Sequence record: NC_103192.1 | DNA from: a phage | Length of the DNA: 64,000 bases | Direction: 5' to 3' (one strand) | In this document: one piece after another, positions 5,106 through 52,027 of the stretch | Layout of the letters: the number at the start of each line of letters is the position of its first letter | How positions within the stretch are numbered: position 1 is the stretch's first letter | Notes under the pieces: generated by a model | Told to the model about the DNA's origin: nothing | What the model saw: only the letters and a program-made list of their open reading frames with translations | Database searches by the model: none | Translations under genes and position numbers: made by a program

Positions 5106-8100
5106 ATGAGCATGTATAGCTTCGATTTTGAGGCCTCCGGGCTTTTGGAAGATCCAGATCTTTATTATCACTGCGGCCTGTTTAAAGAGCTGAATAAGAA
5201 CCGTTTTATGCTGTTCCTCCCTCTAAATGACCGCACACACTACTCCGAGGAGGATATAGAGAAGGCTAAGAACTTTATTCTGGCAAAGAAAACTCTTTAT
5301 AAAGATTTTGAAGTTCGCATAGCAGATTTTTCAGAGTTGGAAGGTTGGCTTACAGGCAATTCTGACTGGTCACCAACAGCTTTGAACTGCCATAACTGCT
5401 ACAGTTATGACTTTATGCTGATGGAGAGATTATCCGGTATTCATTTTGATATGTTCCGTGATCCTAAATGCATGGGTACTATCAACGATCACCAGGTTAA
5501 CCTGTTTGATACGTTGGCGATGAGCCGAATCTTGTGGCCTGATCGCCCTTTACCAAAAGGTTGCCCGGACGCTGTATTCAACCCGGTTACTAAGAAAATG
5601 CAGCCTGTTGGTCCTCACGGCCTTATGGCATGGGGCTACGCTCTTGGTAACCAGAAAGTTCAAATTGATGACTGGCGCGATCTTCCGCTGTGGAAGTATG
5701 TGGATCGTGTATTTGAGGACGTTATCATCCAGGAGCTGCTCTGGAAAGAGCTAGTAGCGGAATCAAAAGGTGTATTCTACGGCAAATCTGACATGCAGAA
5801 CTTCATGTATGACCCTGCCAAAGAGAAGCCTAAAGGATTCAAGAAGATTACCTGGAAGAATGCATTACGCCGAGGCATGCTGCAGCACTTCCTGATGGAG
5901 CTGCAGGCCCGTCAGGGTGTGTATTTCGACATAGATGGGGCTATTGCTTTACGTGACCGTTGCGATGCGTGGATGAAAGAGATCGCTGATCGTGTTGAAC
6001 CTCAACTCCCTTTAAAAGAGTTGTCAATATCTCAGCGGCCCAAGTTCCCTGAAAAGCCGTTTAACCAAGATGGGACAATCTCCAATAATGGTTGGAAATG
6101 GTTAAAAGATAAGCTTGGCTACCCTGTGGACATGAGCGCTTTAGATTTCAAAGCCCCACCTAAGCGAGCATTTACCTCCACAGGAGATGTCAGTAAGATG
6201 GGGATAAAATGGTGTGAAGAGATGGGCTGCAAAGACCCCGATAAGATGGCTGCTTTCTTGAGAGGCTATATTAAGGGCACTTCCACACCACAACCTTTAC
6301 CTAAAGAGCTGATGGATCAGGCAATAAGTGATCTACAGCAGAAGCGAATGCCTGACTGCAAGATACCTATGAAAATCAGCAATCAGGACGACATTAAGCG
6401 ATACCTGATCAGTGCTGGTTGGCTTCCGACAATGTGGAGAACTAAGGATGTAACTAAAGACAGCAAGAAGAAAGCTCTACCTGATGCAGATGTTGATGCA
6501 CGAGTATATGCATATATGGACGAGCTTTTAGAGTCAGAGTATTGTGACCTAATTATCAACTTCTGGAACAAAACTGATGCTAAGTTTCAGACAACAGTGC
6601 ACAAGTTCCGAAGCTTTCCTAACTCCGAAAGGATTAAAAAGGAAGTATTCGGGAAAATACGCAGAAAAGCTAGGGCACTTATTACTTCCCCGCAACTGAA
6701 AGATACGTTTGGACACCTATGCCCGAATCTTGAAAGATTGAACGGAGAGATGGCTAAAGATATCGTCTTGTGGTTATCATTGCGAAACCGCAGATCGGTA
6801 CTTGATCCAATCAAGGAGGATAAGGTTGATACTGGTCTTCTTAATCACCCACGTTTGAAGATTGACCATAAGCTTCCTGCTAAAAGCTCTGGATTAACAA
6901 ACACTTCCCGACAGAAACACAGTATTTGTGCAAACATGCCTAAACCATCTCCTAAAGTGGTTATGGGTAAAGAGATGCGTAGTCTGTGGGGTGTTCCTCC
7001 AGGATACTTTGAGATCGGTATTGACGGGTCTAACTTGGAGCAGCTTATCGGGGCTTGGGGTGCCTTTGAGTTCGACAACGGCCTGTATTACGATGTTGTA
7101 AGTAACGGCGATGCACACTGTTATTCAGGAGATACACAAATTCTCACGGAGAAAGGGTGGGTGAGGTTTGAAGATCTTGATCCGGGAACACAAGTGTTCC
7201 AGTACGATCACAACACCTCGTCGATGAACCTTGTTACTCCATTAAATTACGTTAAGCGTAGTTATTGTGGGGATATGTATCATTTCCACAACAGCGGTGT
7301 GGATTTTATGGTTACAGATCAACACAGGATGCTGACCGTGGATCACAGAAGCAATAAATTGTTTGAAGATTTGGCAAAAGACCTGAAAGCAGGTAAAGGG
7401 TCTAATTCAGGAAGAAGGTTTATCCATGCGGCAGAGTTTTATGGGAATACAACCTTATCTCCTGCCCAGGTTAATTTGCTTATTGCTATTCACGATGATG
7501 GGCACTTGCATACAAATAAGGACGGCAGCATCGTGTGCAGGATTCAGGTCGGGAAGGGCAGAAAAGTTGCAACGCTTTTAGATACTTTTTCTGCTCTAAG
7601 CCTTAGTTATGTAGAGCAGAGCGGGAAAACCACAAAAGGGGGCTTACTGGCGAGAAGGTTCCAATTCCACGTTCCGTCCTGGGTATTTGAGTTTTTGGAC
7701 AGCAATAAGGATTTCACCTACAACCTGATGGACCTTGATAAAGAATCTAAAAACCTGTTTATAGCTTCTTTATCTAACTGGGACGGGTGGGTATCTTCCG
7801 AAGGTGGAAAAGTTGCCTACTACTCTCAGGCCGAGTGCAGGAAGAAATCTGTAGAGGTTGTGTCTGCGCTGGCTACTCAGTGTGGTTTACGGAATAATAC
7901 GGTAGCGATTCACAAAAAAGGTCGTTCCGTACAGCACAGAATCACGATTGGTAGCAAACAGAGAGCAGGGTTGCTGACACTATCTAAAGAGTCTGTCGAG
8001 GTGAGCGGTTCTTTGGTTTATTGCGTTACCGTCCCTTCTGGAGCAATCATTGTGAGAAGGAATGGTAAAGTGGCAGTGTGCGGTAACTGTAATAACGCCA

Positions 8101-8498
8101 AAGCTTACTCTTCTGTAGCAGGCAAGGAGATTTCCCGTAACGATGGTAAGCCTGTCACGTACGGTGTTATGTACGGGGCACAAAAAGATAAAGTTGCAGA
8201 TATGCTGGACATCTCTCCAGAGTTGGGACAAAGGGTAATCGATGCGCTTTGGGATGCCAACCCCGGTCTTAAGGGGCGTAAAGAGGATCTGGAGAAATTC
8301 TGGGAAGCAACTGGTAAGAAGTTTATCTACTCTTTTGATGGTCATGCCATCTGGACCCGATCTAAACACTCTTTACTTAATGCATACCAACAAAATGGTG
8401 GTGCATCGTTGTGTGACTTAGTTGGGATACTCATGCACCACCAAATGGTGAAGCGTGGGTGGTACGATGAAGGTGTTCGCCGTATTATCTATTACCAT
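5106..8498 (+). CDS. family A DNA polymerase, exon 1 (contains intein 7119..8087)
   Basis: 3'-5' exo motif FDFEASGL; Pol A motif A IGIDGSNLEQ and motif B RNDGKPVTYGVMYGAQ flanking intein; ORF stop 8502..8504 lies in intron. Confidence 0.85.
7119..8087 (+). mobile_element. intein (about 323 aa) with LAGLIDADG-type homing endonuclease-like insert, in DNA polymerase between motifs A and B
   Basis: N-terminal block CYSGDTQILTEKGW, C-terminal ...VYCVTVP...VCGN followed by +1 Cys; internal LLIAIHDDGH and LFIASLSNWDGW dodecapeptide-like motifs; exteins rejoin to ...SNGDAH|CNNAKAY... matching T7-like spacing. Confidence 0.75.
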
Positions 8499-8826
8499 AA
8501 ATAACATTGTGGCTTCGTGCAGTGATGCACGTCGAAAACCTCTTTAATTGACGGGAAGGCTAAGTTGACTTTTACACCTAAACATGGTAAAAGCTCGATA
8601 TGCTAATCCGCAGCGAAGCATCCGAGAGGATGAACGTTCAGAGACTATCGAAAGCATAGCTCCAGCATAGTTTGGTGTGAAGAAGCGAGTAGAGTAGGCC
8701 AGCAAGTGCGGTCGAAATGAGAGGTGCCTTGGTAACAAGGCAGTGAGATAGTCCGATCCATACGGGAAACTGTATGGCTATGCACGTAATGGTGCGGGGT
8801 AGCTTAACGACCTACCTGAACTATTG
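8499..8826 (+). ncRNA. group I self-splicing intron (no ORF) in DNA polymerase motif C
   Basis: Exon ends on U (..YYH, cat) with IGS-like GUGG at intron nt 10-13; core elements P-like ttgacgggaagg, Q-like aatccgcagcg, R gttcagagactatcgaaagc, S gagatagtcc; terminal G at 8826; splicing restores YYHDEYQLQV (Pol A motif C HDE). Confidence 0.75.
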
Positions 8827-9180
8827 GATGAGTACCAACTTCAAGTACCTGACACACCGAAGTATAAGACTGTGTACACCTTCGACACAATCGAAGAACT
8901 GGAAGCATTTAAGGCAGAGCAGGAGGCCAAACTTCATGTGTTCGACGGTCATAAGTACAAAAAGGCACGCAAGGATGAGGACGGAAACGAAGTGGTTGAC
9001 AGAGACGGAAACACGGTGTACGATCCTATCCTGAACGATGACGGAAAGCTTGAACTTATCTGGAGCCCTGTGGGTGAAATGGTGGTGCATTGCTTCTGGC
9101 AAGCTTCTAAAATGATGGGCGTCCCATTCCAGATCACAGGTGAATACTTGTGTGGGGCTAATTGGGGTAGTTGTCACTAA
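8827..9180 (+). CDS. family A DNA polymerase, exon 2 (C-terminal 117 aa)
   Basis: Begins DEYQLQV completing motif C; ends ...GANWGSCH, which I recall as resembling the T7 DNA polymerase C-terminus. Confidence 0.8.
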   Translation, partial: DEYQLQVPDTPKYKTVYTFDTIEELEAFKAEQEAKLHVFDGHKYKKARKDEDGNEVVDRDGNTVYDPILNDDGKLELIWSPVGEMVVHCFWQASKMMGVPFQITGEYLCGANWGSCH

Positions 9181-47341: not shown

Positions 47342-48277
47342 TCATTTACCGCAGATCTCTTTATACGCTGCTTCCACTATGCTGAACACCTCAGGCCTGT
47401 AGTAGAAGAATTCGGTGCTACCATTAAATTTTACAGGAAAGTTTATTTTACACTTGTTGAAAATCTCGTGCACAGATTTTTCTACACTTAGCATGTTTTT
47501 AGTCGATCCGCTCCATGTTTTCAATATATGTAAATCATGTAGACCCGCGCCAGATGTATGTGCGCTTTTTAATATCTCATCCTTTCTATTATCAACACGG
47601 ACGCTCACACCTATCTTCATGAGTGTAGGCAATTCTAGATCATCAACCATGATGTAAAGTTTACCACAATCGTGGGATAAAAATCCACTTTTGGTGCATT
47701 TAGGACATCCTCTCCCTCCTAAATGCTTGGTAGGGGATTGACAGAAATCTCCATGGTCTGTGCAAACAATTGTAACCTTGATGTGTGAATTCACATACCT
47801 AACTTTAGAGTAATCATACTTGTTCCCGTGGACAGCCACAGCGTCCTGGATAAACTCTTCAGTGGTCTTTTTCATAGATCCGCCACATCCTGGACAGCCG
47901 TGACCACGCTTAAGGCTACCAGGAGTAGCTGACCATTCGTGGTTGCAAACTTTGCAACGACATAATACTTTATTACACCCTGTAGTGATCTCTTCTAATA
48001 TTTCAATATAAGTATTTTTCTTCCCTATGTCCTCAACCCACTTTTCATGAGGTTTGGTTTTACTTTGTGCTATTTTTAGCTTCCTGCATTCAGGACACCC
48101 GCATTTTTGATTTAGATGTATATCAGGTGTTTGGGCAAAGTGGGTGCCGCAGTGCTTACATATTATCTCCACTTTATCTTTACAGGTTTTATAGTCCACA
48201 AGAGAGTAGTCGTATTTATCACCATGTTTCTCTCTAGCCCTCCCTATAAATTCCTCCGTTGTCAGTCGTCTGGTCAC
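47342..48277 (-). CDS. putative free-standing homing endonuclease (repeated Zn-finger modules + GIY-YIG/T5orf172-like C-terminal domain)
   Basis: Two copies of module TEEFI..A...HG.KYDYS.V.Y...C..HG.F...P..HL.G.GCP.C; located between nrdG and nrdD; GTG start with AAGAGGA RBS. Confidence 0.5.
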   Translation of the reverse strand: MTRRLTTEEFIGRAREKHGDKYDYSLVDYKTCKDKVEIICKHCGTHFAQTPDIHLNQKCGCPECRKLKIAQSKTKPHEKWVEDIGKKNTYIEILEEITTGCNKVLCRCKVCNHEWSATPGSLKRGHGCPGCGGSMKKTTEEFIQDAVAVHGNKYDYSKVRYVNSHIKVTIVCTDHGDFCQSPTKHLGGRGCPKCTKSGFLSHDCGKLYIMVDDLELPTLMKIGVSVRVDNRKDEILKSAHTSGAGLHDLHILKTWSGSTKNMLSVEKSVHEIFNKCKINFPVKFNGSTEFFYYRPEVFSIVEAAYKEICGK

Positions 48278-48344: not shown

Positions 48345-49307
48345 TCAGCAACTACAACTTCCATAGTGCTTCACTCGCTCGATAACTTCCGCTTGCTTAC
48401 CTGTGTTATACGGCCTACTGTTCGGGCTGGAGAGATAGCCAGACACTCTTCGGATCACTGAGATATATTGTTCATCGTGGCATCCGCACGCAGGGCAGCA
48501 GAACCCTTTAGCTGTTGCACTGAACTCACCAGAGAAACCACACTTGAGACATTTATCCACAGGTTGGTTAATACCAAAATACATAATATGTTTATACCCG
48601 AAGTCAACAAGAGCCTCTAAAGCATCTAAGTTGTTTTTCAGATTTGGTGTCTCTATGTACCCAATGTTGCCACCAGAGGAGATCATAGCAAAACCTTCCT
48701 CATACTTCCACTTATCAAAAGGTGAGCTATTGATCCATACTGGCTGGTGGAAACTGTTGGTGAGGTATTCATGCTCGTGCTTCAACACTTCAGGATATTC
48801 ACGATCCAGGCAGGTTGCAGCCTTATAGCATAAACTCTCAGAAGGGGTGCCGTACAAGCTAAATGCTAGTCCACTTTCCTTCTTATATCGCTCACAAGCA
48901 TCCTTCATGTGCTGAAGGATTCCAAGAGCTAAAGCCTTGTCACCCTCTCTGCCCAAAATCTGACAGGTTTCATACACACCAATATACCCAATACTGATGG
49001 AAGCGTACCCGTCATAGAAGAGTTTATCGATACTCTCTTCAGGATCCAGGCGAGCAAGAGCTCCTTCACACCACATGATAGGATTCTGCCCGGCCTTGGT
49101 GCCTTTCAGACGGTTAACCCTTACAAGGTGAGATTCATATGCCAAATCCAGATACTCGTCAAGAACGGCAAAGAAATCAACACCTTCCGTCTTAGCTTTT
49201 GCCGCAATCATTGGTAGGTTAAGGCTAACAACACCCAAGTTGAATCTGCCAAGGTATTTCTCCTCGCCTGTTACAGGGTCGCTATATTTCGATAAGAAAC
49301 TTCTACA
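48345..49307 (-). CDS. nrdD: anaerobic ribonucleoside-triphosphate reductase, exon 3
   Basis: Glycyl-radical motif RRVSGYL and C-terminal Zn ribbon CLKCG...CPACG; junction inferred ...SMG|CRSF..., intron ends on G at 49308. Confidence 0.75.
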   Translation of the reverse strand, partial: CRSFLSKYSDPVTGEEKYLGRFNLGVVSLNLPMIAAKAKTEGVDFFAVLDEYLDLAYESHLVRVNRLKGTKAGQNPIMWCEGALARLDPEESIDKLFYDGYASISIGYIGVYETCQILGREGDKALALGILQHMKDACERYKKESGLAFSLYGTPSESLCYKAATCLDREYPEVLKHEHEYLTNSFHQPVWINSSPFDKWKYEEGFAMISSGGNIGYIETPNLKNNLDALEALVDFGYKHIMYFGINQPVDKCLKCGFSGEFSATAKGFCCPACGCHDEQYISVIRRVSGYLSSPNSRPYNTGKQAEVIERVKHYGSCSC

Positions 49308-50069
49308 CATTATGTTCAAGGTGGTTCGCAAGGCCACCCCCGCACCTTTACGTGCTGCTGCATGTCCCCATGCAGATCAGACTATATCTTCACACTTAGT
49401 GTGTCTACCATTTCGAGTGTCATCAGCTTACACCCTACACCGCTACATTCATCACGGTTAGTCGTTAGGCATTTCGTAACAGAACTCGTAATCATAGTTA
49501 TTAGGTGCACCACGTTTCAGGATAGCAGATATTCTTTTTCTATCTATTCCTAAAACATCAGCACAACATCTCAGACTCTTAAAGTGAATAACCACACCAG
49601 TTAATTTGTGGGTGGCTTTCACCCCGTGACATCTTGTGTAAAAAGCATAACAGTTGTTGTCGTATCCTTCTTGAGTATTGTCTGGGCAAGCTCCCCACTC
49701 AAGGTTGTATACGCTGTTATCTTTCCTGTTGTCACCTTTGTGCTTAACATATGGTAAATTGTCTGGATTTGGTAAAAACGCTTCAGCAACAAGTCTGTGA
49801 ACCCTTAGGCAAACAGTCTTTTTGTTCTTGCGTATCCTGACAAGACGGTAACCTGTGTTTATCTCTTCCCACGAATGAATAATTCTTTCATTTTCGTATC
49901 GGGTGCAATAAACATTGCCCATCTCGTCAATTTCATAACCTTCAAAATCACGAATTTGTTTTCTCATTTCAGGACTCCTCTTAGTCAGGAGTTCTGTTAC
50001 GTTTAGCACGGGATTGTCCGTTCTGGAGTTTCCCCGTTTAGATAGATTTTACATGAGCAGTTATAGTTT
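49308..50069 (-). ncRNA. group I intron 2 of nrdD, with HNH ORF between Q-like and R-like elements
   Basis: Exon 2 ends on U (..atg ggt); P-like aaacggggaaac and Q-like caatcccgtgc in 5' part; R-like aacgactaacc and S gaagatatagtc in 3' part; last nt G. Confidence 0.6.
49458..49967 (-). CDS. intron-encoded HNH homing endonuclease
   Basis: VHRLVAEAFLPNP...VKHKGDNRKDNSVYNLEW HNH motif; ATG after AAGAGGAG. Confidence 0.75.
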   Translation of the reverse strand: MRKQIRDFEGYEIDEMGNVYCTRYENERIIHSWEEINTGYRLVRIRKNKKTVCLRVHRLVAEAFLPNPDNLPYVKHKGDNRKDNSVYNLEWGACPDNTQEGYDNNCYAFYTRCHGVKATHKLTGVVIHFKSLRCCADVLGIDRKRISAILKRGAPNNYDYEFCYEMPND

Positions 50070-50378
50070 ACCCATGCTTGTTACTTTGCCGTCTGTTGAA
50101 CCTGTCACTTTTCTATTTAGCGGTACAGATACGAAGTCGGGATAAATCCGCTCTGCAGAGCATTCCAGAGCCAACCGTTTCAAATCATAGTTAGGATCCC
50201 CAGGATTCATGTTGACACCCTCTTCTAGGAAGAACAGCACTTTAGGGAACACAGGTGTGATACGTTCTTCACCAAGACCCATTTTGTGGACTTTCAAGTA
50301 ATTTTTGGTAATCATTCTACCAAAGACCGAGGTATCCAGTCCTAAACTTAATGTGATGAATGGAGTCTGCTGTCTCCT
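50070..50378 (-). CDS. nrdD: anaerobic ribonucleoside-triphosphate reductase, exon 2 (5' boundary approximate)
   Basis: In-frame region with no start codon; ...SLGLDTSVFGRMITKNYL..GLGEERITPVFP...EEGVNMNPGDPNYDL matches what I recall of NrdD internal conserved region. Confidence 0.55.
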
Positions 50379-51175
50379 CCCTGTGTTTCCACAGGGCCAG
50401 ACTATCTCTTACTCTACTTCAATAAGATAATAACCCTTTATTGTGAGATGCTTACCTTCGGCATTTCCTTCGATAGCCCTATGAACGTTACCTACGTTCA
50501 AATTTAAGGCTTTTGCACAGGCATAGAGTGAAGGATATTCACCAACCAAGGTTTTCCCTTTGTATGCCTGCACTTTCCTATAGCACTTACCTGGACAAAG
50601 TCCTGTTCGGAAAGCATGTCTCTTATTATCTTCCGGCAAAACCCACTCTAGGTTAGACGGATGATCATTCAATGTATTGCCATCTTTATGATTCACTTCC
50701 CAGTTTTCAGGGTCTTCTGGGACATCTGGCAAACAATACAAGGCAACAACCCTTGAGGTTTGGATTCGAATCTTTTTACCTTTGTGGTTGAAAGAGTACA
50801 TATAACGGCGTTTAACATGCTTGTTACCTTTTCCATAACCTCCCCACAATATTGGGTGTAGCATTCCACGTTTTCCGTATACGTTTCCAACCTCATCAAT
50901 CACATAGTTTGACTCTTCACCATTAAGAATGATCTTTTTCATAGAGCCTCTCCATTTCGAAGTTAGTATTTCAACTAACCCCTACACTACTTGGTTCAGA
51001 AATGTTTGTCAAGCATCTCTGCCTTTCGTTAGTCGTTACAACCGTTCCAACTCCTGTAAGAACTAGTCACGGGATTGGCGTAGCTTTCGCCTTAGCGTTC
51101 CCCGTTAGCCGGATTTACCGACCCCTCTTATGAGGTTAGGAGAGTTTTACAACGGCCAGTTTGTTAACCGTTGAC
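50379..51175 (-). ncRNA. group I intron 1 of nrdD (core in 5' 220 nt, HNH ORF in 3' extension); boundaries +/- about 15 nt
   Basis: P-like ggctaacggggaacgc, Q-like caatcccgtgac, R-like gtaacgactaacgaaagg, S-like ggttagttg upstream of ORF; architecture as I recall for T4 nrdD (sunY) intron. Confidence 0.55.
50409..50942 (-). CDS. intron-encoded HNH homing endonuclease
   Basis: VNHKDGNTLNDHPSNLEWV HNH motif; RBS GGAGAGG. Confidence 0.75.
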   Translation of the reverse strand: MKKIILNGEESNYVIDEVGNVYGKRGMLHPILWGGYGKGNKHVKRRYMYSFNHKGKKIRIQTSRVVALYCLPDVPEDPENWEVNHKDGNTLNDHPSNLEWVLPEDNKRHAFRTGLCPGKCYRKVQAYKGKTLVGEYPSLYACAKALNLNVGNVHRAIEGNAEGKHLTIKGYYLIEVE

Positions 51176-52027
51176 AGAAGTTAACGTATTGATTTGATAG
51201 AGCAAAGTCTGCATGCTGTCAAATACGTCTTTATCTGTCATTTGCATTGCAACAGTCTCAGCATCTGGCAACCAATGTTCCTGGCAAAATTTAAGGTTCT
51301 TCTCATAGGTCGCTTCAGCATACTGTGCCAGATAATGATCAATATGACTCATGGTCTGACCGCCATATTGAGCACTAGCTACTGCACTAGAGATTTGGCT
51401 AAGGATTGTTGTTGCAACCCCTATTGACTTCGGCTTACTGACATGGGCGTTACCAATGTTGAATCCGTTTTCCAACATATCTGGATAATTTACCAAACAA
51501 CAGTTTGTTAACGGACTGATCAAATAGTCAAGATCATGCACATGGATGAAGCCTTTGTTGTGCTCTTCGGAGACACGGTCTGGCAGGATCTGTGTTGATG
51601 CAAGGTGTTTGCTAAGGATGCCTGCAAGCAGGTCACGATGAGTATGCACATGATTAGTAGGCTTATTTGCGTTTTCTTTTGTAAATTCATCACAAGTACG
51701 ATCCAAGAAGCCACTAATATCGGCAAGCAGTTTTCCACCTGCCTCTCTGTTATTATCTCTTGTCTGTCTATACTGGATGTATTCTCTGGCTGCACATTTT
51801 AAACCCATATCCATAAGAGCATCTTCAACAAGGATATGGATATTTTTTACAGAGATCGTGCACTGGTCAGTTGGCAGATTGTTGGCAACAACTTCATTAA
51901 CCGCACAGGCAATCCGGTAAGCTTCTTCTTCAGTATGTCCAGACTCAAGTAAGGCGGACTCTGCCGCCTTGATCACCTTAATTCCGTTATAGACCTCTTC
52001 TCTACCGTCCCGTTTTACAACTTTCAC
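51176..52027 (-). CDS. nrdD: anaerobic ribonucleoside-triphosphate reductase, exon 1 (3' boundary approximate)
   Basis: ATP-cone VVKRDGREE and IHVHDLD region; ORF stop at 51164 lies in intron; GTG start after GGAGAG. Confidence 0.75.

Follow-up and report, generated by a model that had tools for sequence, protein, structure and literature searches.

Two group I introns in nrdD

The anaerobic (class III) ribonucleotide reductase (RNR) gene nrdD on the minus strand of phage record NC_103192.1 is very probably interrupted by two mobile group I introns, independent of each other and of the phage IA2 type, a reading to which we assign a probability of about 90%. The gene spans positions 48,345–52,027 of the 64,000-nucleotide stretch of DNA that was analyzed (the window). 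The Pfam matches of its coding pieces, uninterrupted alleles in related phages and the ribozyme helices all divide it into three exons separated by two group I introns, with an HNH endonuclease gene in a different peripheral loop of each, broadly as an initial annotation made from the letters alone had proposed. A megablast search with the 3.7-kb query identified the phage as an rV5-like E. coli phage of the genus Vequintavirus. Altogether 298 phage records matched, and in six of them at least 80% of the query was covered in one place.

Exon structure of nrdD

The Pfam profile NRDD is matched by three in-frame pieces of the minus strand, on which all features of this locus lie. The pieces cover profile positions 1–154, 155–263 and 263–562 without overlap or gap. 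Exon 1 (51,167–52,027) contains 287 codons for the ATP-cone and the N-terminal part of NrdD, and ends with TCT GTC AAC GGT (SVNG). Exon 2 (50,070–50,369) contains 100 codons, from CAG ACT CCA (QTPFITLSLG...) to AGC ATG GGT (...GKVTSMG), and lacks a start codon, as had been noted from the start. Exon 3 (48,345–49,307) begins with TGT AGA and comprises 320 codons and a stop codon, including the Gly_radical domain. Its first codon, TGT, encodes a cysteine that aligns with Cys290 in the sequence of the T4 NrdD crystal structure (PDB 1H78), the residue that we take to be the thiyl-radical cysteine.

The exon boundaries were fixed by comparison with uninterrupted alleles. Many Vequintavirus genomes have an nrdD of 707 codons without interruption, and the intron-less alleles include those of phages nimi, APCEc02 and PDX. 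MAFFT alignment of the window with nimi and APCEc02 showed two clean gaps of exactly 797 and 762 nt, and the blast breakpoints in eight relatives with differing intron contents fell at the same two junction positions. The spliced ORF (open reading frame) encodes 707 amino acids, equal in length to the intron-less alleles. Its alignment to the T4 sequence 1H78, a comparison that had been suggested earlier, extends over residues 6–604, is ungapped at both junctions and covers MGC(290)RSF and the Gly_radical region. Thus, the spliced product has a continuous NRDD match, an ATP-cone, the radical-site cysteine and the glycyl-radical domain. The junctions are SVNG/QTPF and VTSMG/CRSF, which places intron 1 between G190 and Q191 and intron 2 between G289 and C290 in T4 numbering. 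The initial annotation had the limits of exon 3 and the second junction exactly right. It ended exon 1 at 51,176 instead of 51,167, and it started exon 2 at 50,378 instead of 50,369, thereby taking in nine intron bases. Its first junction, NTLTS/RRQQTPF, was mistaken: intron 1 opens with the in-frame stop TAA, and RRQ is read from its 3′ end.

Ribozyme cores

Both introns display the hallmarks of group I, namely a U·G pair at the 5′ splice site with a guide sequence and a terminal G, at positions fixed independently by the intron-less alleles. A conserved core from P3 to P9, including the P3/P7 pseudoknot and P4–P6, is present in both with compensatory changes, the sample being small for intron 1. 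Moreover, both have the P7.1 and P7.2 hairpins between P7 and P3′ that define subgroup IA2, and both contain the GUAGGG and CGAAAUG linkers common to the T4 introns.

Intron 1 (50,370–51,166) is a 797-nt, IA2-like group I intron that starts with UAA, an in-frame stop codon, and ends with GACAG. P1 is AACGGU/GCCGUU with U·G at the splice site, and the final ACAG directly precedes exon 2. A P10 helix is possible, as the CUG of the guide strand directly before the P1 strand can pair with CAG, the first bases of exon 2. The 5′ part of the ribozyme (50,941–51,166) holds the 3′ strand of P1 (internal guide sequence, 51,156–51,151), P2, P2.1, P3 (CUCUCC/GGAGAG), P4 (ACGGGG/UCCCGU), P5/P5a with a GAAA loop, P6/P6a and the 5′ strand of P7 (R, GACUA, 51,034–51,030), which lies in UAACGACUAAC. 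It continues with P7.1 (8 bp, CAGAGAUG/CAUUUCUG), GUGUAGGG, P7.2 (6 bp, GUUAGU/ACUAAC), UUCGAAAUG, P3′ (50,953–50,948) and the 5′ strand of P8 (50,946–50,941). The 3′ part (50,370–50,417) contains the 3′ strand of P8 (50,417–50,412; P8 is CUCUAU/GUAGAG), J8/7 and P7′ (S, AAGAGAUAGUC, with UAGUC at 50,404–50,400), the P9 hairpin CCCUGUG-GAAA-CACAGGG (50,396–50,379; 7 bp with a GAAA cap) and the terminal G at 50,370. The core had been placed in the first 220 nt of the intron. This is correct for P, Q, R, P7.1, P7.2 and P3′, while the 3′ strand of P8, P7′ (S) and P9 follow the ORF. As these three strands of the core come after the ORF, the proposed layout with the ORF in a 3′ extension, like that of the T4 nrdD (sunY) intron, does not apply; the ORF sits in the P8 loop.

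A 257-nt variant of intron 1 without an ORF occurs in phages 241Ecol014PP and SophiaRose. A helix table of the ORF-bearing and ORF-less variants showed all 15 helices fully paired in both. The sequences differ in P2.1, P3, P6a, P7.1, P7.2, P8 and P9 with pairing kept; in the ORF-less form P2.1 is GUCAGC/GCUGGC, P3 CUCUGC/GCAGAG, P6a GCUUCAC/GUGAGGC, P8 GUCUGA/UCAGGC and P9 CCUUGUG/CAUAAGG. Unaided minimum free energy folding of either version recovered P2, P2.1, P3, P4, P5, P8 and P9. The ORF-less copies (positions 2362–2618 of our record L002 and 1751–2007 of L006) match the ORF-bearing form only over the first 139 nt, at 86% identity, and differ from it in P7.1, P7.2, P8 and the exon flanks. 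The ORF-less form is therefore more than a plain deletion of the HNH gene. We also considered that the ORF-bearing intron is a chimera with a relic P3′ (GGCAGAG), and rejected this since the stretch forms an 8-bp hairpin, P7.1, within a regular IA2 architecture.

Intron 2 (49,308–50,069) is a 762-nt group I intron of subgroup IA2 and of the T4 sunY/td lineage. It starts with AAACUAUAA, in which an in-frame stop follows two codons, and ends with GAACAUAAUG. P1 is CAUGGGU/GCUCAUG with the splice-site U opposite G, followed by P3 (UCUAUC/GGUAGA), P4 (ACGGGG/UCCCGU), P5, P6 and P6a, and the last intron bases are AAUG. The 3′ part of the ribozyme (49,308–49,485) contains the 3′ strands of P6a and P6, the 5′ strand of P7 (49,463–49,459), P7.1 (ACCG/CGGU), P7.2 (GUGU/ACAC), P3′ (49,409–49,404), P8 (49,403–49,391), P7′ (S, 49,384–49,380), P9 (49,375–49,358), P9.1, P9.2 and the terminal G at 49,308. 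The S element, GAAGATATAGTC, is 72 nt upstream of the 3′ splice site. Here the initial annotation held in full, as it had put the HNH ORF between Q and R, which is the P6a loop, and S near the 3′ splice site.

We counted paired positions in a MAFFT alignment of the window copy, three sister copies, T4 sunY and T4 td. Over 49 pairs, 97.3% of the cells were paired and 10 pairs had changed on both sides. None of 500 shuffles reached either value, and slid partners paired in only 26–48%. In addition, a 280-nt copy without an ORF occupies the same nrdD site in phage cardinal (Justusliebigvirus) and scores 72.3 bits with the Rfam model Intron_gpI (RF00028), above the gathering score of 50 bits. Since this homologue passes the threshold, intron 2 is assigned to group I.

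Endonuclease genes

HNH1 (50,409–50,942), in the P8 loop of intron 1, encodes a 177-aa homing endonuclease resembling I-HmuI. Its Shine-Dalgarno sequence GGAGAG is the P3′ strand, its ATG lies inside the 5′ strand of P8 and its stop codon abuts J8/7. The protein matches Pfam HNH_3 at 29.4 bits, passing the cut-off of 24.8, shows a weak match to the NUMOD-like part of I-HmuI, belongs with PHROG 59 (3.5e-26) and aligns with residues 8–159 of I-HmuI (PDB 1U3E; E 4e-4).

HNH2, in the P6a loop of intron 2, is an I-HmuI-like HNH ORF of 169 aa from the likely ATG at 49,967 to the TAA at 49,458. Its last ~27 nt also supply three ribozyme strands, P6a′, P6′ and R (the 5′ strand of P7), and therefore its stop codon TAA lies inside ACGACUAA. 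A hairpin of -12.4 kcal/mol (z -2.7) encloses the HNH2 Shine-Dalgarno sequence. HNH2 matches PHROG 59 'HNH endonuclease' at 4.5e-32 and residues 4–172 of I-HmuI at E 6e-8, and a weak NUMOD-like match is also present. Both proteins are colinear with I-HmuI from its N-terminal DNA-binding sheet through the HNH part to the C-terminal helix-turn-helix/NUMOD, and its catalytic histidine and metal-binding asparagine are aligned in both (...HKDGN...NLEW...N). The two proteins are 29% identical to each other, and both ORFs are intact and 97–99% conserved in many phages. We infer that both enzymes are probably active and specific for the nrdD insertion sites. A sigma-70 promoter scan gave fewer sites than in shuffled sequences and none positioned to drive HNH1 or HNH2.

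Distribution and mobility

To describe the distribution of the introns we compared nine nrdD alleles, in which all presence/absence combinations occur. The states seen are no intron, intron 1 only, ORF-less intron 1 only, intron 2 only, ORF-less intron 1 with intron 2, and both introns. The intron cores show no similarity detectable by blastn. Together with the free combination in sister phages and the divergence of the two HNH proteins, this bears out the earlier suggestion of independent invasions.

The flanking exons differ between alleles with and without an intron. Every allele with intron 2 has an identical 39-nt stretch at the opening of exon 3, which has 13–15 differences, amino-acid changes included, from every allele without it, over a background of 3–5%. 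The 5′ flank of intron 2 shows no such association with intron presence. At -1 and +3, every allele with an ORF-bearing intron 1 reads T and G instead of the G and A of intron-less alleles, and the alleles with the ORF-less form have distinctive flanks of their own on both sides. Presence/absence polymorphism and co-conversion tracts together indicate that both introns would be homing actively and independently of each other.

The introns also differ in their reach. Between the window and a Phapecoctavirus, identity is 85% for intron 2 including its HNH gene and ~70% for the adjoining exons. We rejected nrdD of Justusliebigvirus or Phapecoctavirus as the donor of intron 2, as agreement with those genera ends after the first ~16 nt of the 3′ exon; the remainder of the 39-nt tract matches neither these genera nor the intron-less Vequintavirus allele. 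A blastn search with intron 2 after deletion of its ORF returned 795 phage records, all three T4 introns among them. The intron 1 query returned 42 records, which are 27 ORF-bearing copies, 14 ORF-less copies and one unrelated short match. No T4-type intron was among these 42, and intron 1 was confined to nrdD of Vequintavirus. The exon tracts and the identity across genera are the footprints that would be expected of endonuclease-driven homing with co-conversion and intergeneric transfer.

Some twenty GenBank records matching the query (MG0656xx) are labeled 'Campylobacter phage'; those listed are ~135–143 kb long and ~95–97% identical to the window phage. The one that was inspected, A142 (L011), is marked UNVERIFIED and classified as Vequintavirus. 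The Campylobacter host label of these records is probably wrong.

Alternative explanations

Several observations weigh against two functional mobile introns. Neither intron of the window reaches the Rfam gathering score. The covariance-model search that had been suggested initially did match both to Intron_gpI, at scores below threshold (e-value mode): 32.9 bits (E 9e-6) for intron 2, with J8/7-P7′ AAGAUAUAGUC, P9 and the final G well aligned, and 27.7 bits (E 3e-4) for intron 1, with S, P9 and the final G well aligned, the 5′ half being forced into the ORF in both. At the gathering threshold, no intron was matched in nrdD of the window and three relatives, and the one match in the window is in another gene. 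Two causes lower these scores: the model is interrupted by the ORFs, and the insertions of IA2 reduce the score as well. Even the ORF-less intron 1, with the whole model aligned, scores only 28.4 bits (E 2.5e-5), and the covariation of intron 1 comes from two sequence variants only. Furthermore, HNH2 matches Pfam HNH_3 at 20.1 bits, under the cut-off of 24.8, and in both HNH proteins the residue aligned with Asp74 of I-HmuI differs. Finally, we infer splicing of both introns from sequence, and some phage genes interrupted by HNH genes are unspliced, such as nrdA of Aeh1 and CB7_245 (PMC7344957).

Two other explanations were considered. The three nrdD pieces could be translated separately and assembled as a split enzyme, the intervening DNA consisting of free-standing HNH insertions as in the mobE-split nrdA of Aeromonas phage Aeh1. 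Split, unspliced RNR genes are indeed known in phages (PMC3653736, PMC7344957), many GenBank records annotate three separate nrdD coding sequences, and in the ORF listing the ORFs over exons 1 and 3 have GTG starts. However, exon 2 has neither a start codon nor a ribosome-binding site, and the GTG at which the ORF over exon 3 starts belongs to the P9.2 hairpin of intron 2; a start there would add 10 residues that are missing from intron-less NrdD. Complete covarying ribozyme cores flank the interruptions, with the U·G and the terminal G exactly at the points of colinearity, and ORF-less forms of both insertions exist, which would be senseless for insertions of endonuclease genes. Separate translation is thus extremely unlikely. 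That one or both introns are decaying relics with poor or no splicing and an inactive endonuclease, and that nrdD is a pseudogene tolerated thanks to the aerobic NrdAB, is also very unlikely. This explanation could draw on the low Rfam score of intron 1 without its ORF, the sub-threshold Pfam match of HNH2, the NrdA and NrdB genes next door and the complete absence of nrdDG from some Certrevirus relatives (PMC7344957). Against it, the reading frame is open in all three exons, and the spliced product has its full length, the equivalent of Cys290 and an intact glycyl-radical domain; in both intron families, the pairing of every helix is preserved by compensatory changes; both endonuclease ORFs are as well conserved as described above; and the sharp co-conversion tracts indicate recent homing. 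We therefore favor two mobile group I introns over both explanations.

Comparison with known introns

The T4 nrdD (sunY) intron, a textbook case (PMC2988022), shares the host gene and the IA2 architecture with P7.1 and P7.2. Intron 1 had been likened to sunY in its layout, but blastn, core identity and the guide identify intron 2 as the homologue of the sunY core. Their identity is 69–77% in the P1–P6 segment and 73–78% in P6′–P9, with a blastn match of 71.7% over 207 nt, and they are identical in the guide GCUCAUG, the P7.1 loop UGAUGAAUGUA and the P9 hairpin. The insertion sites differ. Neither intron of the window is at the T4 site, because sunY interrupts codon Tyr180, upstream of both; the intron 1 site is 32 nt and the intron 2 site 329 nt downstream. 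The sunY ORF also differs, as it encodes the GIY-YIG enzyme I-TevII in a 3′ extension after P9, whereas the ORFs of the window encode HNH enzymes in L8 (intron 1) and L6a (intron 2).

The T4 td intron (I-TevI) and the T4/RB3 nrdB intron (I-TevIII) likewise have the phage IA2 core and an in-frame stop soon after the 5′ splice site. Intron 2 resembles td in that the ORF is looped from P6a in both, and their 3′ ends (UGAACAUAAUG) are identical; it differs in its lower core identity (57–67%), its host gene and its endonuclease, I-TevI being of the GIY-YIG type. I-TevIII does belong to the HNH enzymes, but it carries a zinc finger and is of a kind other than I-HmuI. The two endonucleases of the window align with I-HmuI end to end, at low identity, and the I-HmuI system differs in both host gene and host phylum. 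I-HmuI is a nicking enzyme whose homing co-converts chiefly the downstream exon, and the 3′-only exon tract of intron 2 matches this pattern.

Introns with HNH genes are also found in other Vequintavirinae, in terL of rV5 and in terL, the DNA polymerase gene and nrdA/B of CB7, which are the same kind of element in the same subfamily. In CB7, splicing of such introns was demonstrated by RT-PCR, and nrdD is uninterrupted (PMC7344957). For rV5, introns were reported in terL only (PMC3606486). Split RNR genes, nrdD especially, are a recognized feature of phages (PMC3653736). The authors of the BASEL collection state that intron boundaries were annotated (PMC8594841), and their record of phage EmilHeitz joins nrdD across intron 1. 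Our literature search found no description of these two nrdD introns. Both are examples of familiar selfish DNA in phage genes of nucleotide metabolism, real but ordinary.

The common guide raised the question of how intron 2 and sunY came to occupy different sites. GCUCAUG fits both AUGAGU, the sequence of the T4 site, and AUGGGU, that of the G289/C290 site. A single lineage may have moved between sites 329 nt apart in nrdD with its guide unchanged and its endonuclease module swapped, a history that we consider doubtful. We rejected the idea that the shared guide is specific for the intron 2 site: the spliced gene contains four 7-mers able to pair with GCUCAUG, compared to 2.0 expected from shuffles, and the probability of at least one is 0.87. 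As such 7-mers are not rare in nrdD, the site switch is just a lead. The shared guide is evidence for common descent and not for targeted insertion. Codons 287–290 of T4 nrdD (L009), CCG AUG GGU/UGC, are equivalent to the intron 2 site and pair with the guide of the resident sunY intron at six of seven positions. If P1 complementarity did guide the move, either by reverse splicing or by illegitimate insertion and later selection of copies competent to splice, phages would offer a natural and traceable example of a group I intron transposing to an ectopic site.

Proposed mechanism and significance

In our model, nrdD would be transcribed as a single pre-mRNA, on which ribosomes would halt at the in-frame stop codons that open each intron. 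Each ribozyme would then fold and excise itself, by guanosine attack at the U·G of P1 followed by exon ligation past the terminal G, leaving an mRNA that encodes 707 aa of NrdD, colinear with the product of uninterrupted alleles. During mixed infection, the HNH enzyme would nick or cut intron-less nrdD near the insertion site, and repair from intron-bearing genomes would copy in the intron with a short stretch of flanking exon.

The locus is of practical value for annotation, since many GenBank records give three 'nrdD' fragments and 'hypothetical proteins' for what we read as one gene with two introns and two endonuclease genes. It is also a compact natural experiment in intron mobility, with all intron combinations, ORF-less and ORF-bearing forms of each intron and sharp co-conversion tracts. 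T4 and three phage genera share one intron backbone, which is found at differing sites and with differing endonuclease genes. The locus should thus be useful for studying how endonuclease genes and ribozymes assort, and it reveals no new mechanism.

Neighboring genes and other selfish elements

ORFs and Pfam matches place genes for NrdA, NrdB, glutaredoxin, NrdD and NrdG on the minus strand between 46.7 and 55.7 kb of the window. A minus-strand ORF of 311 aa (47,342–48,277) separates nrdD from nrdG and appears to be a homing endonuclease gene of the free-standing kind. Its product combines a DUF4379 zinc finger with a T5orf172 (GIY-YIG-like) domain, and PHROG 681 'endonuclease' is matched at 6e-62. 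The ORF is absent from nimi, APECc02 and EmilHeitz, and SophiaRose has a 'GIY-YIG nuclease family protein' annotated in this place. The last ~220 nt of nrdD (48,345–48,570, minus strand) are mosaic, being 0–15% diverged from EmilHeitz and SophiaRose and 15–30% diverged from phita32, 241Ecol014PP, PDX, nimi and APECc02, over a background of 3–5%. This mosaic end may reflect recombination or a co-conversion tract tied to the adjacent free-standing endonuclease gene.

Two other selfish elements were found in the DNA polymerase gene (5,106–9,180, plus strand). An intein-like insert occupies approximately residues 663–1002 of the 1132-aa polymerase ORF and matches those parts of unrelated PHROGs (PhoH, RNR, thymidylate synthase) that contain inteins; these matches came from PHROGs, and a Pfam scan of the same ORF gave none. 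The second element is an ORF-less group I intron at 8,489–8,776 (Rfam 73.7 bits), after which the last polymerase exon follows (ORF 8,824–9,180). In FV3, APECc02, SophiaRose and others, the region matching this intron is ~510 nt longer and has an HNH gene annotated beneath it, which presumably sits inside the intron of the polymerase gene.

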